From positions 4,103,389 through 4,167,388 of the forward strand of contig CBDANF010000003.1 of the NCBI GenBank assembly GCA_965197475.1: a stretch of DNA of 64,000 nt, written 5' to 3'. This DNA is from Candidatus Poribacteria bacterium. GTDB taxonomy: Bacteria > Poribacteria > WGA-4E > WGA-3G. Both the position numbers and the translations under genes were made by a program. Under the pieces are notes generated by a model. That model was not told the DNA's origin, did not search any database, and saw only the letters and a program-made list of their open reading frames with translations. Shown piece after piece: positions 1,025-8,173 of this stretch (position 1 is the first letter of the stretch; the number at the start of each line of letters is the position of its first letter).

Positions 1025-4000
1025 TTATTCCTCAACCGTTTCAGAAACCGTTTCAGATTCAGAAATCGGTTCGGGCAGTGCTTCCGGTTCCGGATTGGCA
1101 ATTGCGTCACGGGACACTTCAAGTTCGTGCCACTCAGAGAAACCGGTACCTGCGGGGATGAGGCGTCCAAGAATCACGTTCTCCTTTAGACCTATAAGCA
1201 TGTCTGTTTGCCCTTCAACAGCGGCATCAGTGAGAACTTTCGGGGTCTGCTGGAAACTAGCTGCAGAGATGAAACTATCGGTGCTGAGCGATGCTTTGCT
1301 GATACTCTGCAAGACGGGTTCACCTGTTGCTGGGGTACCGCCTTCTTGCGCAACGCGCCTGTTTTCGACGTGGAACCTATGTCGGGTGACTTCATCATTC
1401 GCGTAGAACGCAGTGTCACCAACAGATAGAATGCGTATCTTTTGAAGCATTTGCCGTACAATAACCTCAACATGCTTGTCGTTGATCGTGTTGGTCCCAT
1501 AGACCGCCTGGACCTCATCAACGAGGTATGTCCAAAGTGCTTCTTCACCTTCAAGGGAATGCCCATTAAGGGTAGTCCTCCCGATAGCGAGGATATCGTG
1601 TGGATTTAGGTATCCATCGGTTAAAGGTTGCCCTGCTTTGACCCAATCGCCATCATCAACGCGGCGTTTCTCATCGGGAATAGAATATAGACGACTTTTG
1701 GTAGCACCATCTACGATTCGGTATTGGGGCACCCCAGCCTTCTGCCCAGTGAGTTGCACGTACCCACCAATTTCAGCAATTTCAGCAGCGTCTTCGCGCT
1801 TGGGGCGACGTGCTTCAAAGAGTTCTGTCACACGCGGGATACCTACCACGATATCAAGGTTCGTGGTTTTTTCGTGCAATTCCGCTAACGGATGCTGTGC
1901 GGTCACTTTCTGTCCGTCTTTGACAGAGACAGAGTATCCTGCGGGAATAAGGTGCGACACGCGCCCACCACCGGGGATGTCAATGTCAATACGGAAAGTT
2001 TCGATTAGACCATCAACATCAACGCCAGTATATTGTTCAAGTGCAGTGGCGTACTCCCAATCTTTCAGCTCTTGACCAACAGAAAGTGTGCAGTTCGGAT
2101 GCGTTACCTTTGTCACTTGATAGGTATTCTTTGAAGTGGCTGCCGATTCTTTTTTATAGTCCGCATCACTGAGGATGATACCTACAGTAACCTCAGTTTC
2201 GGTTGAGTTGACATTCGTCACCTTATATACACGTTCAGTATCAAAGCCTTTGTAGAGCCGTTGTGCACGTTTATACTCAGTTTCGTCAATCTGCTGTCCA
2301 GCAGTGAACGGACAATCGGCATGATGAACTGCAAGGACATGATACATCAGTTTTACGTCAGGTAGCGGTGTATCGGTCTCCCGGTGCTGTTTAACGAGTA
2401 CCTTGTAGTCCGTTTCTGCCATAACTTCTTCAGTTTCAGCACCTTCAGGAACGTGTAGGTAAAGTTTCTCGAAGTCAAACCCTTTAAAGTTACGCCGTAA
2501 ACGATTCGACTCAGATTGTGTGATGAGTTCATCTACAGCAATAGGGAAGTCGGGATGGTGTGAGGCTGCGATACGATAGAGGCGTTCAACATTAAATGCC
2601 CCTTCATTTTTAGCGACATTAACCTCAAATCCTGGATATACCTTCAACACCGCTTTTTTCTCATTTTCGGTGAGCAGGGTTTCTTCGGGTTCTAACTTAC
2701 AATCGGGATGGTGAACAGCAGTTATCCGGTATTTGAGCCGTTCTGCAGTAACGCCACTGAATTTCTCTCGAAGTGCCTCTAAGTTTTCGATTTCAATGAG
2801 TTCTCCAGGCTTTAGCGGACACTCTGGGTGCCTTACCTGTATGACGCGACACACAGGCGTTGATGGGCGTTGCACATCAAATGCTTTATGCATCTCTTGT
2901 GCGCGGCGGAATTCTGTAGCAGTCAATTCTTGCTTCTCAGTTAAGTCAATACCATCACTGACTTCTGTTACGGTATACACTGGGTCACCGAGCTCCAGAT
3001 GATATTGGCTCTCTTCTTCCGGTGTGAGTAGTTTTCCTTCCTTATATGGGCAGCGCGCGGGCGTTACTGTCTGAATTTGATACTTCATCTTCGCAGTAAC
3101 ACTGTTCTGCCGTCGGAGATATTCACCTTCGGTGAGAATAGCACCTTTTTCCGTTTGATACACCCATTCACCATCAAACGGTCGGATTTCTGTACGCCAT
3201 GCTTCAGCCTCACTTTCCGTCAACAGTGTTCCTTCCTTCAACGAAGTTTCCGGATGTTTTACACTTTCCACACGATAATGTGGTTCAGAGCATCGGAACA
3301 ACGAATACTGTTGGGAGTACTTGACGTACTCATGCTCAGTGAGATACTGCCTCTCTTGCAACGGAGAGCCTTCTCCAGCGTTCGCCTCAATAACATCCAT
3401 GCGGTTAATTTTGGCAACTTCGTAGGTGATCAGTTCCACCTCAAAACCAGGATAACGTTCAAGATTCTCTTGATACTGTTTTTCAGTAAGAAGTTCTTCG
3501 GGTTGCAGCTTACATTCAGGATGTTGGACGGTTTTGACCTTATATTTAGGTTGGTCAAGGTGTTCAGCAATCTGTTGTGCAATCCAGAGTCCGTCTTTTT
3601 CATGGACGGTGCGTGTGGGAATGAAATCACGAAACCGCACGGTCCCTGCAGCTTTGGCAAGAATCTTACGCGCGAGGTGTTCACTCATATCTTCAACCGC
3701 ACCGCCAGTATGGAAGGTACGCATCGTCAATTGGGTGCCGGGTTCGCCAATGGACTGCGCTGCGATAATACCGATAGCTTCTCCAACATTCGCGAGGTGT
3801 CCTGATGTCAAATCAGCACCGTAGCACGCAGCGCAGGTGCCTTTCTCCGCCTCACAAGTCAACACAGAGCGAACTCGAACGCTGGAAACGTCTTCCTCTT
3901 CAATTTTATCAGCGTCTTGGGGGGTAAGAAGTGTTCCTTCGTCAATCCTCCACAAACGCTCAGATTCTAATCCCTTCCACACCTTGTTTTGGATTTTCCA

Positions 4001-7000
4001 CTCTTCTGGAGTGAGCTCTTCATCTATCTTCGGAGATTCATAGTCATTACGCGCTTTCTGATATTCAGCATCGGAAATGATATCACCAACCTTCAACGAA
4101 CATTCTGAATTGTTGACTTCAGTGATCTTCCAGAAGGAATCAGCTTTTAGACCTTTCCATCTGTCACTGTGGGTTTTCCACTCTTTTGGAGTGAGTTGGT
4201 CACCTACCTTCACAGGACATTGTTCACTTTTTAATCCTTTCCATTTGTCACTGTGGGTTTTCCACTCTTTTGGAGTGAGTTGGTCACCTACCTTCACAGG
4301 ACATTGATAATCCTTAAGTGCCTTCTGATACTCAGCATCGGAAATGAGATCGTCCTTCTTATGCGGACACTCTGAATGAATGACTTTGGTGATCTTCCAG
4401 AAGAGATCAGCGTTTAGCCCCTTCCACGTCTCACTGTGGGTTTTCCACTCTTTTGGAGTGAGTTGGTCACCTACCTTCACAGGACATTGATAATCCTTAA
4501 GTGCCTTCTGATACTCAGCATCAGATATAACCTCTTTTTTCTTCAACGTACACTCAAGATTGTTGACTTCAGTGATACACCAAAAGTGCTCGGCTTCAAG
4601 CCCCTTCCACGCCTTGCTATACTTCCTCCATTCTTTCGGAGTGAGTTCGGCACCTACCTTTAGCGAATATTTTTCAAGGATTTGATCACATTCACCTTCA
4701 GTTATCAGTTCACTGACCTTGCGTAGACACTCTGGATTGTTGACCTCGGTGATTTCCAAGGATACATCGGGGCGAATACTAGGATACTTTTCGTAAAATT
4801 TTTCCCAATCTGCTTCGGTTTGACTCCCACCCTTACTAGTAGATATGGATTTTTTAGCATCTTCCACAGCGGCTAAGAGTTTCTCTTTAACCTCATCAGA
4901 GTTTTCACCAGGCCAATCTTCTCCTGATATATGTAATATTTTCCATCCTAATTCTTCAAGTTCTTGCTGCTTTTTGCTATCTTTCACTTTTCTCTCATGT
5001 TCATCGTGGTCAGGACCGTCACATTCTATACCGATCCAGTACTCACCTTGTTTGTCAGCATTTACAGCGATGTCAATTAGGCGGTAATCATTAGGCCCAT
5101 CTGGAGTATCAATTTTAACCTGAGAAGTAACTTCATATCCACTGTCTGAAAGGAACTGATAGACTTCCTTCTCAAAAGACGAATGAAAATGAGAAAGTTC
5201 CGTAAAAGGCACCTTTTTCGCAGCAATAGGATCAGAGAGTGCAGTCACCTTGTAGTGCTCATCCTCCCCTTTGATGGGATAATCTGGTATTTCGGTCACC
5301 TTGTAGTGGTCCATTTGACCTATAATACCATCAACACCATCGGGTACCTTAGTTACCTTTATAATGGTATCGGGGACTTCGGTAACTTTGTAATGATCTT
5401 CTTGACCTATGATTCCATCAGATACTTCGGTCACCACGTACACAACACGCCCCTGAATATTGGGCACTGTGTTTGCATCGTAGTGTTCAATAGAAAACTT
5501 GATAGGATCCACAATAACACGCCCACTAATTTTGAATCCTATGGATCCTGCATCTGTGGTGAACTTAAGGACACCGTGCGTTGTGCCGCAGTCATCTTCG
5601 GAAATCATAACATCTTGCGCGACATCAACCAATTTCCGTGTGAGATATCCAGAGGCCGCAGTTTTCATCGCGGTATCTACCAATCCTTTACGTGAACCGT
5701 AGGTTGACGTAAAGTAGTCAAGCACATCCAAACCTTCCCGATAGGAAGATTGAATCGGCGTGGGCAAAATTTCACCGCTCTGCCTTGACTTCAATCCAAC
5801 GATCGCGCTGATTTGCCTGAAAGGATTTGGACGTGCACGTGCGCCACTATCTGCCATTATATAGACAGGACTAAAACCTTCTACTTCTTTATCTTGTTCA
5901 ACCAAATAGGTTTTAGTTTCTGGAAGAGCGGTGAACAGTGCCTTCTCAATTTTTGTGACAGCGTCATACCATATCCGAATCTTCTCGTTCTCTAATTCCT
6001 CCGCCTCAAGATTTTCCTGCTCATTGAGACGTTCAATTTGTTTACTTGCTTTAGCAAGGATGTCGGTTTTGTCAAGGGGAATCAGGTAGTCCTGTATCCC
6101 GGGAGAGATTCCGCTGCGAGTTGCGTACTCAAAGCTAAGCTTCTGTAACCGATCTAACAAGGATACAGTTTCTGCGGTTCCAAGTTCGTTGAAACAACGT
6201 TTAACAAGGTGTGACAAACGCTTGCCACGTGCTTCCTCATTGAAAAACGGCAATTCAAGTCCTGTTATCTCATCTTTCCAAGCGAGTGAGGCGGTACCGT
6301 TCATCCGTGGAAGCACCTCATTGAAAATAATACGTCCGACGGTCGTAAGGATAGGTTCGCGATGTTCTTTGAAAAAGAGTAGAACCGAATCATGCAGTTT
6401 TAGCGTGCCACAACCTTGTGCGTGTGTCACCTCATCCACAGATGTAAAGCGGCGTTTTGCCCACGGTTCACTTTCTAATGTCGCAAATATGCTGTCTTTT
6501 TCTACGGATTCCGATTTTTCTGTGTATGCAGCGTGGAGTAGTTCTGCCCGTTCTTGATGTTCTGGTAGTACCTTTGTAAGAAAACTCGCGCCTAAAATCA
6601 TATCAAGTTCCGGCACCGTAATCGGTTCCCCGTGAGAAGGCTTAAGAATATTACCACTACTGAGCAGTAACATTTTAGCTTCTGTGCGCGCTTCAATAGA
6701 CAAAGGAACATGAACTGCCATCTGGTCACCATCAAAATCAGCATTGAACGCCTTACAGACGAGCGGTGGAATCCGAATCGATTTACCCTCAACGAGTACC
6801 GGCATAAACGCCTGAATCCCGAGTCGATGGAGCGTCGGTGGACGATTTAATAACACCGGGTGGTCAGCGATAACTTCCTCTAATGCTTCCCAGACAGGTG
6901 AGTCCGGTGTAACGTGTTCGGTTAGGTGCTTCCCACGTTTGATAGTCTGTACTTCTCCAGATGCCAAAAGTTTTTCAATAATGAATGGCTTGAACAGTTC

Positions 7001-8173
7001 AACAGCCATTAATTTGGGTAACCCACACTGATGAAGTTCCAATTCGGGACCGACAACAATCACACTTCTGCCGGAATAGTCAACACGTTTTCCAAGAAGG
7101 TTTTGCCGGAAACGCCCGACTTTACCTTTGAGGATATCGGACAAGGATTTGAGCGCGCGTTTGCCAGGTCCAGTAACGCGGCGTCCGTGTCTGCCGTTAT
7201 CCAAAAAAGCATCAACGGATTCCTGAAGCATCCGTTTTTCATTTCGAAGGATGACTTCCGGTGAACGGAGGTCAATAAGCTTTTGCAGACGGTTGTTTCG
7301 GTTAATGACGCGACGATACAGATCGTTGAGGTCGCTTGTTGCAAATCTACCACCTTCCAGAGAGACTAACGGGCGGAGGTCAGGGCTAATCACAGGCAGC
7401 ACATCAAGAATCATCCAATCAGGATGCATGTCTGCCTTATCAAACCCTGCTACCATCTTGAGCTGTTTTGAAAGTTTAACTTTTTTCTGGTGGCTTGAAG
7501 TTTCCTCAAGTTCCTGCTTGAATTTTTCGACATCTTCAGGCAGATCAATTTTGCGCAGCAGTTCCTGAATTGCCTCAGCACCCGTTCCTGCTCGGAAGGA
7601 GTCTGGATGCTCGCGCAGTTTAGCGTTCACGTCCGTCTCTGTGAGAATATCTTTTTCCGCCACCCCACAACTGTCATCAATGACTTCTGTGACAATGAAC
7701 GCTTCAAAATAGAGAACCCGCTCAACTTGGCGGGATGCGAGTTCGAGAAATGTTCCAAGCCTCGACGGGATTCCCTTGAAAAACCATATATGGGAGACTG
7801 GCGTGGCGAGTTTGATATAACCGAGTCGTTCTCGTCGTACTTGTGATTTTGTTACTTCAACTCCACACTGGTCACAGATAAGACCTTTGTGCTTAATCCG
7901 CTTGTACTTACCGCAACTGCACTCAAAATCCTTCTGCGGTCCAAACGTGGCTTCACAAAATAAACCTTGATGTTCAGGGCGAAAACTGCGGTAGTTAATC
8001 GTTTCTGCCTTTTTGATTTCACCGCAATCACAAGTGCCTTTCTCGGGACACGTCCATGCATCATTCGCTGGATTCCGCCGCTTACAAGATGTCCGTTTTG
8101 CCCAATCTTTTATCTGATCAGGCGATGCGATACTGATAGAGATACGATTAAATCGATTTTCTTTGTCTGCCAT
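1025..8173 (-). CDS. rpoC: DNA-directed RNA polymerase beta' subunit, unusually long (2382 aa) with two large insertions
   Basis: Zn finger CSCGKYK..CDQCG, GKRVDYSGRSVI, catalytic NADFDGDQMAVH, bridge helix KTAASGYLTRKLVDVAQD, trigger loop GEPGTQLTMRTFH, C-terminal GLKENVILGRLIPAGTG. Confidence 0.98.
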   Translation of the reverse strand: MADKENRFNRISISIASPDQIKDWAKRTSCKRRNPANDAWTCPEKGTCDCGEIKKAETINYRSFRPEHQGLFCEATFGPQKDFECSCGKYKRIKHKGLICDQCGVEVTKSQVRRERLGYIKLATPVSHIWFFKGIPSRLGTFLELASRQVERVLYFEAFIVTEVIDDSCGVAEKDILTETDVNAKLREHPDSFRAGTGAEAIQELLRKIDLPEDVEKFKQELEETSSHQKKVKLSKQLKMVAGFDKADMHPDWMILDVLPVISPDLRPLVSLEGGRFATSDLNDLYRRVINRNNRLQKLIDLRSPEVILRNEKRMLQESVDAFLDNGRHGRRVTGPGKRALKSLSDILKGKVGRFRQNLLGKRVDYSGRSVIVVGPELELHQCGLPKLMAVELFKPFIIEKLLASGEVQTIKRGKHLTEHVTPDSPVWEALEEVIADHPVLLNRPPTLHRLGIQAFMPVLVEGKSIRIPPLVCKAFNADFDGDQMAVHVPLSIEARTEAKMLLLSSGNILKPSHGEPITVPELDMILGASFLTKVLPEHQERAELLHAAYTEKSESVEKDSIFATLESEPWAKRRFTSVDEVTHAQGCGTLKLHDSVLLFFKEHREPILTTVGRIIFNEVLPRMNGTASLAWKDEITGLELPFFNEEARGKRLSHLVKRCFNELGTAETVSLLDRLQKLSFEYATRSGISPGIQDYLIPLDKTDILAKASKQIERLNEQENLEAEELENEKIRIWYDAVTKIEKALFTALPETKTYLVEQDKEVEGFSPVYIMADSGARARPNPFRQISAIVGLKSRQSGEILPTPIQSSYREGLDVLDYFTSTYGSRKGLVDTAMKTAASGYLTRKLVDVAQDVMISEDDCGTTHGVLKFTTDAGSIGFKISGRVIVDPIKFSIEHYDANTVPNIQGRVVYVVTEVSDGIIGQEDHYKVTEVPDTIIKVTKVPDGVDGIIGQMDHYKVTEIPDYPIKGEDEHYKVTALSDPIAAKKVPFTELSHFHSSFEKEVYQFLSDSGYEVTSQVKIDTPDGPNDYRLIDIAVNADKQGEYWIGIECDGPDHDEHERKVKDSKKQQELEELGWKILHISGEDWPGENSDEVKEKLLAAVEDAKKSISTSKGGSQTEADWEKFYEKYPSIRPDVSLEITEVNNPECLRKVSELITEGECDQILEKYSLKVGAELTPKEWRKYSKAWKGLEAEHFWCITEVNNLECTLKKKEVISDAEYQKALKDYQCPVKVGDQLTPKEWKTHSETWKGLNADLFWKITKVIHSECPHKKDDLISDAEYQKALKDYQCPVKVGDQLTPKEWKTHSDKWKGLKSEQCPVKVGDQLTPKEWKTHSDRWKGLKADSFWKITEVNNSECSLKVGDIISDAEYQKARNDYESPKIDEELTPEEWKIQNKVWKGLESERLWRIDEGTLLTPQDADKIEEEDVSSVRVRSVLTCEAEKGTCAACYGADLTSGHLANVGEAIGIIAAQSIGEPGTQLTMRTFHTGGAVEDMSEHLARKILAKAAGTVRFRDFIPTRTVHEKDGLWIAQQIAEHLDQPKYKVKTVQHPECKLQPEELLTEKQYQENLERYPGFEVELITYEVAKINRMDVIEANAGEGSPLQERQYLTEHEYVKYSQQYSLFRCSEPHYRVESVKHPETSLKEGTLLTESEAEAWRTEIRPFDGEWVYQTEKGAILTEGEYLRRQNSVTAKMKYQIQTVTPARCPYKEGKLLTPEEESQYHLELGDPVYTVTEVSDGIDLTEKQELTATEFRRAQEMHKAFDVQRPSTPVCRVIQVRHPECPLKPGELIEIENLEALREKFSGVTAERLKYRITAVHHPDCKLEPEETLLTENEKKAVLKVYPGFEVNVAKNEGAFNVERLYRIAASHHPDFPIAVDELITQSESNRLRRNFKGFDFEKLYLHVPEGAETEEVMAETDYKVLVKQHRETDTPLPDVKLMYHVLAVHHADCPFTAGQQIDETEYKRAQRLYKGFDTERVYKVTNVNSTETEVTVGIILSDADYKKESAATSKNTYQVTKVTHPNCTLSVGQELKDWEYATALEQYTGVDVDGLIETFRIDIDIPGGGRVSHLIPAGYSVSVKDGQKVTAQHPLAELHEKTTNLDIVVGIPRVTELFEARRPKREDAAEIAEIGGYVQLTGQKAGVPQYRIVDGATKSRLYSIPDEKRRVDDGDWVKAGQPLTDGYLNPHDILAIGRTTLNGHSLEGEEALWTYLVDEVQAVYGTNTINDKHVEVIVRQMLQKIRILSVGDTAFYANDEVTRHRFHVENRRVAQEGGTPATGEPVLQSISKASLSTDSFISAASFQQTPKVLTDAAVEGQTDMLIGLKENVILGRLIPAGTGFSEWHELEVSRDAIANPEPEALPEPISESETVSETVEE
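4150..4530 (-). repeat. Near-identical in-frame direct repeats in rpoC insertion 1
   Basis: ccactcttttggagtgagttggtcacctaccttcacaggacattg occurs three times, offsets 84 and 183 bp (CPVKVGDQLTPKEWKTHS x3). Confidence 0.9.
4860..5195 (-). other. Vsr/DUF559/MTES_1575-like PD-(D/E)XK nuclease domain embedded in frame in rpoC
   Basis: SSFEKEVYQFL..GYEVTSQV..LIDIAV..GIECDGPDH..D..QQELEELGWKILHISGEDW matches the family pattern as I recall it. Confidence 0.8.

Follow-up and report, generated by a model that had tools for sequence, protein, structure and literature searches.

A probable mobile nuclease cassette on a nested split-module stalk in the RNA polymerase beta' subunit of a Poribacteria genus

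Introduction

The nearest architectural precedent for the structure described here is Si3 of the cyanobacterial RNA polymerase (RNAP). According to the part of PMC10895346 cited here, Si3 is 150 A long, its modules SBHM-2 to SBHM-5 are made from distant parts of a chain that folds back, and it lies along the polymerase surface, following cavities of the enzyme; section 2.4 of PMC11515920 describes it as recursively inserted and partly domain-swapped. Guests of another kind, the inteins, occur in eukaryotic RNA polymerase genes, as the cited part of PMC1635734 reports. Here we describe a large in-frame insertion, Insertion 1, in rpoC, the gene for the beta' subunit, of a sponge-associated Candidatus Poribacteria bacterium. 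It lies in a stretch of 64,000 nucleotides (assembly GCA_965197475.1, contig CBDANF010000003.1, positions 4,103,389 to 4,167,388 of the forward strand), called the window below, with position 1 as its first letter.

Taken together, our results suggest that Insertion 1 is probably a mobile, non-splicing nuclease cassette, carried on a nested split-module stalk at the hairpin of the second zinc (Zn) domain of beta'. The chain would run out with strand pieces only, turn in a Vsr-type nuclease and come back as modules that each lack one strand; the two arms would fold only together.

Results

Insertion site and architecture

The rpoC gene is the largest open reading frame of the window and has rpoB (1340 amino acids, aa) directly upstream. 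It encodes 2382 aa, compared to 1868-1920 aa in most beta' frames of the genus. Read in translation, an in-frame insertion of 518 aa (window 3947-5500, minus strand; KFSIEHY... to ...ESERLWR) stands between GRVIVDPI and IDEGTLLT. In four insertion-free relatives that we examined (G030, G001, G010 and G006), this site has a 13-aa loop, GRVTVEPV-LHPTTEEIMVESD-TLITPQ, and the replacement of a short loop proposed in the first-pass annotation is thereby confirmed. The site is in the hairpin of the second-Zn domain, between the bridge helix and the CxxC..CYG zinc site, and not in the trigger loop. Judged by residue numbers, the host region corresponds to beta'-bD5 (807-888) of PMC11515920, which calls this domain BEAN and lists insertion sites in it, together with rare insertions of 'small left claw' (sLC) modules. 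The features of the gene, all on the minus strand, are as follows.

1025-8173, minus strand: rpoC (RNA polymerase beta' subunit), the host gene, with Pfam RNA_pol_Rpb1 domains 1-5
5501-5524, minus strand: outgoing strand of the native host hairpin; it reads GRVIVDPI here (aa 884-891) and is conserved as GRVTVEPV in relatives, whether or not they have the insertion
5213-5500, minus strand: outgoing (N) arm (aa 892-987), a leader and five first-strand pieces, by automated parse
4871-5176, minus strand: MTES_1575 (Vsr-type restriction-endonuclease-fold) nuclease at the turn (aa 1000-1101), by Pfam PF18741
4760-4870, minus strand: helical linker after the nuclease (aa 1102-1138), with helices in a low-confidence AlphaFold2 model
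3947-4759, minus strand: returning (C) arm (aa 1139-1409), from the hidden Markov model (HMM) parse, trigger-loop profile coordinates and DNA tandem repeats
4667-4759, minus strand: returning-arm unit A (strand1-strand2-helix)
4586-4669, minus strand: returning-arm unit c1 (strand2-helix-strand3)
4490-4582, minus strand: returning-arm unit B (strand1-strand2-helix)
4403-4486, minus strand: returning-arm unit c2 (strand2-helix-strand3)
4307-4399, minus strand: returning-arm unit C (strand1-strand2-helix)
4220-4303, minus strand: returning-arm unit c3 (strand2-helix-strand3)
4136-4219, minus strand: returning-arm unit c4 (strand2-helix-strand3)
4040-4132, minus strand: returning-arm unit D (strand1-strand2-helix)
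3956-4036, minus strand: returning-arm unit c5 (strand2-helix-strand3)
3893-3946, minus strand: returning half of the native host hairpin, RIDEGTLLTPQDADKIEE (aa 1410-1427), which aligns with IMVESDTLITPQIAQVIEE of insertion-free relatives
1844-3700, minus strand: separate trigger-loop insertion (aa 1492-2110), 12 tandem modules of the same type, an independent reference for the module

The outgoing arm opens with a unique leader, KFSIEHYDANTVPNIQ, and continues with five strands in the automated parse: YVVTEV (aa 912-917), YKVTEV (928-933), IKVTKV (938-943), YKVTEI (957-962) and YKVTAL (974-979), separated by linkers of 10, 4, 13 and 11 residues. The returning arm consists of nine units, arranged as C o C o C o o C o, with four 'complete' units (C; 31 aa, strand-turn-strand-helix) and five 'orphan' units (o; 28 aa, strand-helix-strand). 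The first-pass annotation had noted N-terminal half-modules before the nuclease, orphans alternating with four larger units after it, and about equal half-module counts with one shortened junction per side. All of this was recovered: the five strands were found, the five orphans and four larger units were parsed, the counts are 5 and 5, and there is one short junction on each arm.

The two arms appear to carry the halves of one module type. We built a reference HMM solely from the separate trigger-loop tandem repeats (264 modules from 20 beta' proteins). The 'complete' units map to positions 11-42/46 of this profile (independent E-value, iE, 2.5e-6 to 1.1e-12) and four of the five orphans to positions 21/23-45/48 (iE 1e-6 to 1.3e-5), the fifth being not significant (iE 0.26). 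Three N-side strands match positions 7/10-19/22, being too short for individual significance (iE 0.14-1.5). Compared to the reference module, therefore, the orphans are without the first strand and the 'complete' units without the last one. On these complementary profile ranges, we take the half-modules to be real halves of a single type of module.

Mirror order of the arms

By searching genomes together with 5.8 billion proteins, we obtained 12 nuclease-tipped stalks, which represent four lineages at three host sites; a decayed, nuclease-free rpoB stalk of G027 was excluded. Eight are in rpoC at the site of Insertion 1 (G000, the genome of the window, and G027, G019, G020, P0003, P0005, P0006 and P0007), three are in rpoB at the ETPYR hairpin (G030, G001 and P0009), and one is in the N-terminal part of rpoB (P0029). 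The arms follow a mirror rule from the outside in: a long N-side linker corresponds to a 'complete' unit between two C-side orphans, and a short linker to a direct orphan-orphan junction. When the junctions are written as long (L) or short (s), seven of the 12 stalks have identical strings on both arms, namely LsLL in G000, LsLsLL in G027 and LsLL in P0005 for rpoC, and LLsL in G030, LLL in G001, LLs in P0009 and sL in P0029 for rpoB. G027 has two extra levels on both arms (7/7, compared to 5/5), and the short level is found at differing depths in G030, P0009 and P0029 and is absent in G001 and in the G020 type. It is these matched changes on both arms that constitute the independent information. 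The covariation of N-side and C-side repeat numbers across relatives, on which the first-pass annotation had made its nested arm depend, was thus recovered in part, with an exact mirror in 7/12 stalks, one outer unit off in 3/12 and unequal arms in 2/12.

Co-folding of the two arms

We co-folded the C arm (aa 1132-1436) and the N arm (aa 884-987, the scored partner) as two chains with custom alignments. The interaction prediction score from aligned errors (ipSAE) was 0.59 (0.60, 0.58 and 0.59 in the runs), compared to 0.00 for the best of three controls, and the verdict of the tool was weak support. In calibration, the ipSAE mark was passed by 58 of 80 solved complexes and 2 of 110 mismatched pairs, and the passes at 0.60 or under comprised only seven of the 80 solved complexes and both of the passing mismatches; this calibration is approximate with custom alignments, and halves of one chain tend to pass. 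The runs shared at least 90% of their contacts. The predicted local distance difference test (pLDDT) value of the N arm decreased from 74-75 with the C arm to 38 beside an unrelated chain, and that of the C arm decreased from 84 with the N arm to 58-59 beside unrelated partners. The co-fold adds modest weight to the predicted complementation of the arms.

Selection on the insertion

Between G000 and G027, the ratio of nonsynonymous to synonymous substitution rates (dN/dS) was 0.27 in the N arm, 0.21 in the tip, 0.23 in the C arm, 0.10 in the trigger-loop insertion and 0.04 in the core. Two other pairs gave 0.18 and 0.24 for the N arm, so that the three pairs range over 0.18-0.27, compared to 0.03-0.04 in the core. 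Both arms and the tip are under purifying selection. The synonymous rate (dS) was 0.50 in the N arm and 0.54 in the tip (about 100 codons each), lower than the 0.92-0.98 of the core, and this hints at later exchange of these parts. Because the 84-bp DNA repeat of the C arm is 96% identical within G000 and yet the unit pair that it encodes is present in four species, the repeat points to concerted evolution.

Identity and exchange of the nuclease tips

The tip of Insertion 1 matched Pfam PF18741 (MTES_1575) with 67.1 bits against a cut-off of 38.2 (E 1.5e-18, profile positions 1-94 of 96). MTES_1575 tips are carried by seven of the stalks (G000, G027, G019, P0003, P0006, P0007 and P0009). When these were aligned with four helicase-fused members from metagenomes, which share the family-conserved columns ID.A, GIECDG, D, GW and DW, these columns were kept in 7/7, with P0007 having EYDG. 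Presumably, these columns (ID.A, GIECDG, D, GW..DW) are catalytic. Some of them are absent from trigger-loop MTES tips of another clade (P0013 and P0016).

The other five stalks (G020, P0005, G030, G001 and P0029) have HNH-like tips with the pattern CxxC...HVHH...N...CxxCH. Pfam HNH was matched in two of three tips with E 0.011 and 16.3 bits, under the cut-off of 21.4. Profile matches in the PDB were IscB, the HNH protein of retron Ec83 and McrA (E 0.17-0.59); the first Atlas hit was at 0.96, and the ten best family-bearing hits were all in one family or clan (HNH). Of 176 Poribacteria genomes, 72 have this tip family, most copies being in frames below 360 aa, several with stops; copies within rpoB- or rpoC-sized frames occur in nine of the 176 genomes, in several genera. 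One free-standing frame of 200 aa in the genome of the window (G000:C3:539500-544000, L039), the C-terminal half of which is closely similar to the HNH tips (E 8.9e-27), adjoins a 540-aa ATPase-like frame and an OmpA/MotB-like frame.

The stalks are mosaics of arms and tips, which recombine independently of each other and of the host genes. The stalks of G020 (HNH) and P0003 (MTES) have N arms that are 97% and C arms that are 81% identical despite their different nuclease folds. P0003 and P0006 are 94% and 89% identical in their arms and only 53% in their tips, and P0005 combines G000-type arms with a core from the G020 cluster.

Distribution within the genus

The rpoC stalk was found in four of 40 species of the genus, rpoB stalks were found in two more, and the decayed nuclease-free copy is in G027. 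The core tree joins G019 (rpoC stalk, plain rpoB) and G030 (plain rpoC, rpoB stalk) as sisters with 95/91 support, and their rpoBC DNA is about 95% identical. Identity between the two in the flanks of the rpoB site was 0.86 and 0.79, compared to a background of 0.95, so that divergence is raised there. Sporadic presence in close relatives, loss of the nuclease and its replacement were all observed, as is typical of homing-like behavior. Within the genus, the device thus seems to be both modular and mobile, and the same architecture is present at two other hairpins or loops, in rpoB. A protein search (284-907 aa) with the insertion found no free-standing stalk with this query at E <= 1e-6.

The decayed copy of G027 (L031, an rpoB frame of 1555 aa) is a stalk remnant of 214 aa without a nuclease. 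Two levels can still be recognized in it, and the first strand of its inner level runs directly into the last part of a 'complete' unit (YK|ISDADY), as after a deletion of the tip. A 26-aa insertion (...EYTLESIKEFG..QHI.LTFSDADCE.DKE..., alignment block 1135-1161) is present only in the rpoB of G027, G001 and P0009. All rpoB with this insertion have, or had, the ETPYR-hairpin stalk; G030 has the stalk without the 26-aa insertion.

DNA-level context

Tandem DNA repeats of 84 bp (96% matches), 183 bp and 267 bp are present in the returning arm and are confined to the C side of the insertion. Contigs of other public runs cover the stretch in pieces and show 0 differences from it. Their break points, at 4191-4493, lie within the C-arm repeats, and none of the four public runs has a contig that spans the whole insertion. 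The runs that contain the stretch include sponge metatranscriptomes, the contigs of which contain parts of the insertion, although such presence alone is no proof of transcription. The G+C content of window 4001-5500 was 0.42, compared to 0.45-0.51 in the remaining rpoC, with a more negative GC skew; both amino-acid composition and foreign origin are possible sources of this difference.

Module type of the repeats

The trigger-loop insertion (about 619 aa) consists of 12 tandem sLC-like modules, which are not SBHM domains. Its length was 618-619 aa in all 11 genus-level beta' examined and 636-1349 aa in nine more distant ones. Two of its modules, modeled by AlphaFold2 with 56 rows of natural repeats, had a pLDDT of 78.7 and the order helix, long strand, short strand, helix, strand. 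The long strand consists jointly of the final strand of one module and the initial strand of its successor; after it come a turn, the short strand and a helix.

We suggest that the repeats are sLC-like modules (strand, turn, strand, helix, strand; about 40 aa), because the matches of both the profile and the structural comparison fall at the sLC modules bD2 and bD7 of beta'. Here the sequence match is clear and the fold evidence is weak. The profile of 11 modules matched residues 137-171 in four distinct solved beta' sequences (E 1.1e-4 to 1.1e-3). The cited text of PMC11515920 places bD2 at 139-177 or 142-181 and names the sLC modules beta'-bD2/bD7 ('small left claw', CATH 3.30.60.280). VIA-align placed the two-module model on E. 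coli beta' 1262-1317 (Z 4.1, root-mean-square deviation, rmsd, 2.6 A, 51 residues) and on T. thermophilus 1377-1432 (Z 4.6, rmsd 2.4 A, 51 residues), and 14 of the 15 rows at Z >= 2 were beta' chains, at bD7 or bD2 positions. Foldseek with the same model gave no match at E <= 0.001. The trigger-loop HMM also matches a native N-terminal module of beta', FIVTEVIDDSCGVAEKDILTETDVNAKLREHP (aa 161-193; window 7595-7693, minus strand; iE 1.8e-5), and P0018 and P0019 have a further insertion of sLC-like modules at this position.

Our first assumption was that the repeats were BBM2/BEAN domains, which section 2.3 of PMC11515920 defines by two antiparallel brackets, alpha-beta-beta and beta-beta-alpha. 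This identity was dropped, as the profile and VIA-align matches point to sLC-like modules. No BEAN-containing chain was prominent in the Foldseek or VIA-align comparison of the two-module model, and it is the host domain, not the repeat, that corresponds to beta'-bD5.

Other insertions in Poribacteria polymerases

Within one of the trigger-loop modules there is a hairpin, 'WQYEVTxV ... LSQAEYAKA..YGFQRF', which is empty in P0018-P0020. The same hairpin has MTES_1575 in P0012 and P0015 and HNH in G107 (L040) and G152 (L043), and the rpoC of G152 has one extra module after its HNH domain. In another Poribacteria family, the N-terminal part of rpoB contains an HNH nuclease in G101, G085, G091 and G059 (L041, L042, L044 and L045), between 'FQVDL..ARPEPTQF' and a unit of about 60 aa (VSDAW..QFKDNG...NFTIEKAGDT.NVY). 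In G101, a second copy of this unit is preceded by an MTES_1575-like domain. Copies of the unit without a nuclease also occur, and it is a different adaptor for the same kind of guest. G010 (L034) and G006 (L035), which are without Insertion 1, have a helical, repeat-rich insert of about 350-430 aa at the rim-helix region of beta' (aa about 700-1150; DPKKLIQ..., LPKLKTIRDEV...), which resembles a giant coiled-coil extension.

Discussion

Nesting and complementation of the two arms are likely, as they are supported by the mirrored junctions, by the profile halves and by the arm co-fold against controls (weak support). Quite probably, the arms pair antiparallel and in register, so that composite modules are stacked and the nuclease comes to lie at the distal end. 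The nested out-and-back arm of the first-pass annotation therefore holds as far as complementary arms with a nuclease at the turn are concerned. It went further and had the arm elongated and projecting from the RNAP core; this part stays a prediction, as the AlphaFold2 model of the whole insertion gave no usable shape.

Several observations count against the interpretation of a nested and mobile cassette. That AlphaFold2 model (aa 860-1452, 7-row alignment) was unusable, with a mean pLDDT of 38.5 and a predicted template modeling (pTM) score of 0.26. Three of the 12 stalks (G020, P0003 and P0006) have one extra outermost orphan; a candidate extra N strand, KLIVFT, would match it and is outside the counting pattern. 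Two more have unequal arms, with five N strands against four orphans in G019 and against three in P0007. G019 is a draft of 170 contigs and P0007 is on a 16-kb metagenome contig. Because the short-read contigs of the G000 stretch break inside the C-arm repeats, it is plausible but unproven that the C-side shortage in these two resulted from repeat collapse. Both P0005 and P0007 are from short metagenome contigs and are possibly chimeric or collapsed, and the 12 stalks are related, hence few independent events. The mirror pattern is equally compatible with two strand registers, in which each N strand would pair either with its same-level orphan or with the orphan one level further out. The latter is the pairing found in a canonical tandem array; the direction of the chain argues against a simple restoration of the tandem order in trans. 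As to mobility, the flanks of the rpoC site in G019 and G030 were 0.94 and 0.96 identical, so that the raised divergence expected from co-conversion is missing there. The contigs of the four public runs showed no empty allele, and outside polymerases the MTES tip has its nearest relatives in helicase-fused domains, unlike the expected kin of a homing nuclease.

Some of these points would also be expected if the arms were not complementary at all, the N side being a flexible or self-associating linker and the C side a self-folding tandem array, with equal counts by coincidence or descent. The whole-insertion model without N-side structure, the confinement of DNA tandem repeats to the C side, the unequal arms of G019 and P0007 and a co-fold score in the weak band all agree with it. 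However, it would not account for a mirrored junction order at three host sites that includes matched gains, for orphans without a first strand facing 'complete' units without a last one, for N-arm dN/dS of 0.18-0.27, or for the decrease in the model confidence of each arm without the other, and we regard it as improbable. It is also possible that the arms are complementary and form a compact or surface-hugging body instead of a projecting stalk. Si3, with modules from distant segments, lies along the polymerase surface (the cited part of PMC10895346) and would be an analog of such a body. The strict nesting with one unit per level and the very short connections (PD plus 0-2 residues at the short junctions) would rather favor a linear stack, and we consider the compact form unlikely.

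How a stack with a nuclease at its tip could be maintained is a separate question. The insertion may be a homing-type selfish cassette that spreads by nuclease-triggered repair, and we hold the chances of this to be about even. The predicted nuclease would cut cassette-free alleles, and repair would copy the cassette from an occupied allele via the highly conserved rpoB and rpoC flanks. Because the insert is not spliced out, the stalk would be needed for tolerance, and the split modules could make the unspliced insert tolerable by keeping the nuclease off the polymerase core. Alternatively, the same stalk might serve the host as an RNAP-tethered nuclease, for example in defence against transcribed foreign DNA or in transcription-coupled DNA processing; selection would then keep the stalk, and the turnover of tips would reflect an arms race instead of selfish spread. 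Such a role would fit the purifying selection on the tip and both arms, the conserved nuclease residues that are kept, the nucleases in rpoB- and rpoC-sized frames of 9/176 Poribacteria genomes from several genera, and the relatives of MTES fused to superfamily I (SF-I) helicases, which the cited part of PMC3710099 places among conflict systems. However, in 36 of the 40 species of this genus there is no rpoC stalk, sister species can differ in it, a decayed nuclease-free copy exists in G027, conserved residues are lost in the tips of another clade (P0013 and P0016), and two unrelated nuclease folds are interchangeable. A service to the host seems to us somewhat unlikely.

If the cassette is selfish, it might belong to a new class of such elements, namely in-frame homing-nuclease cassettes that are never spliced out, sit at the tips of surface-module hairpins of RNA polymerase and are tolerated via a self-complementing stalk. 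The stalk would grow level by level and play the role that the splicing domain has in inteins. We put this forward tentatively, as a possibility that falls short of even chances. The exchangeable tips and patchy spread in any case raise the question of whether a homing nuclease can persist in an essential protein without splicing.

If the proposed structure is true, it represents a second, independent way of building a large out-and-back appendage on RNA polymerase, with a module and sites that differ from those of Si3, and the first nuclease built into a beta or beta' chain in the literature searched (supplements excluded). The stalk also explains why these Poribacteria rpoB and rpoC genes are 330-640 aa longer than those of their nearest relatives. 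For annotation there is a warning, as the stalk repeats are broken or collapsed by short-read assemblies.

Comparison with known systems

Like Si3, Insertion 1 is a large, lineage-specific and probably out-and-back insertion in beta'. However, Si3 is in the trigger loop and consists of all-beta SBHM modules, whereas Insertion 1 is in the second-Zn domain and has helix-containing modules. The cited parts of PMC10895346 and PMC11515920 mention no enzyme at the tip of Si3; the Poribacteria stalk has a nuclease tip, and the device is patchy and exchangeable. The sLC modules beta'-bD2/bD7 are related in sequence to the stalk repeats through the profile match at beta' 137-171. The rare sLC and BEAN insertions of beta' in PMC11515920 are not described there as nested split modules or as nuclease-bearing, and the stalk appears to be both; the main text of that paper has 0 occurrences of 'nuclease', 'nested' and 'Poribacteria' (supplementary tables were outside this search). 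Likewise, the literature searched, supplements excluded, yielded no paper on a nuclease inside a bacterial beta or beta' chain.

The helicase-fused MTES_1575 domains (SF-I) belong to the same Pfam family as the tip, which is 43-46% identical to the C-terminal domains of 1848-1852 aa frames in the same genus. The stalk tips differ from them by an extra loop of 7-8 residues, by DH instead of YHS and by being embedded at the tip of a beta' or beta hairpin.

Inteins with a homing endonuclease are likewise in-frame at conserved sites of essential genes, sporadic in occurrence, and provided with a nuclease, in an adaptor loop, that is subject to loss or replacement. The Pfam matches at E <= 0.1 of the whole protein or of the insertion alone included no Hint or intein family. 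The difference lies in the fate of the guest: inteins splice out, whereas the insert on the stalk would stay in the mature protein, with a stack of split, host-like modules as its adaptor.

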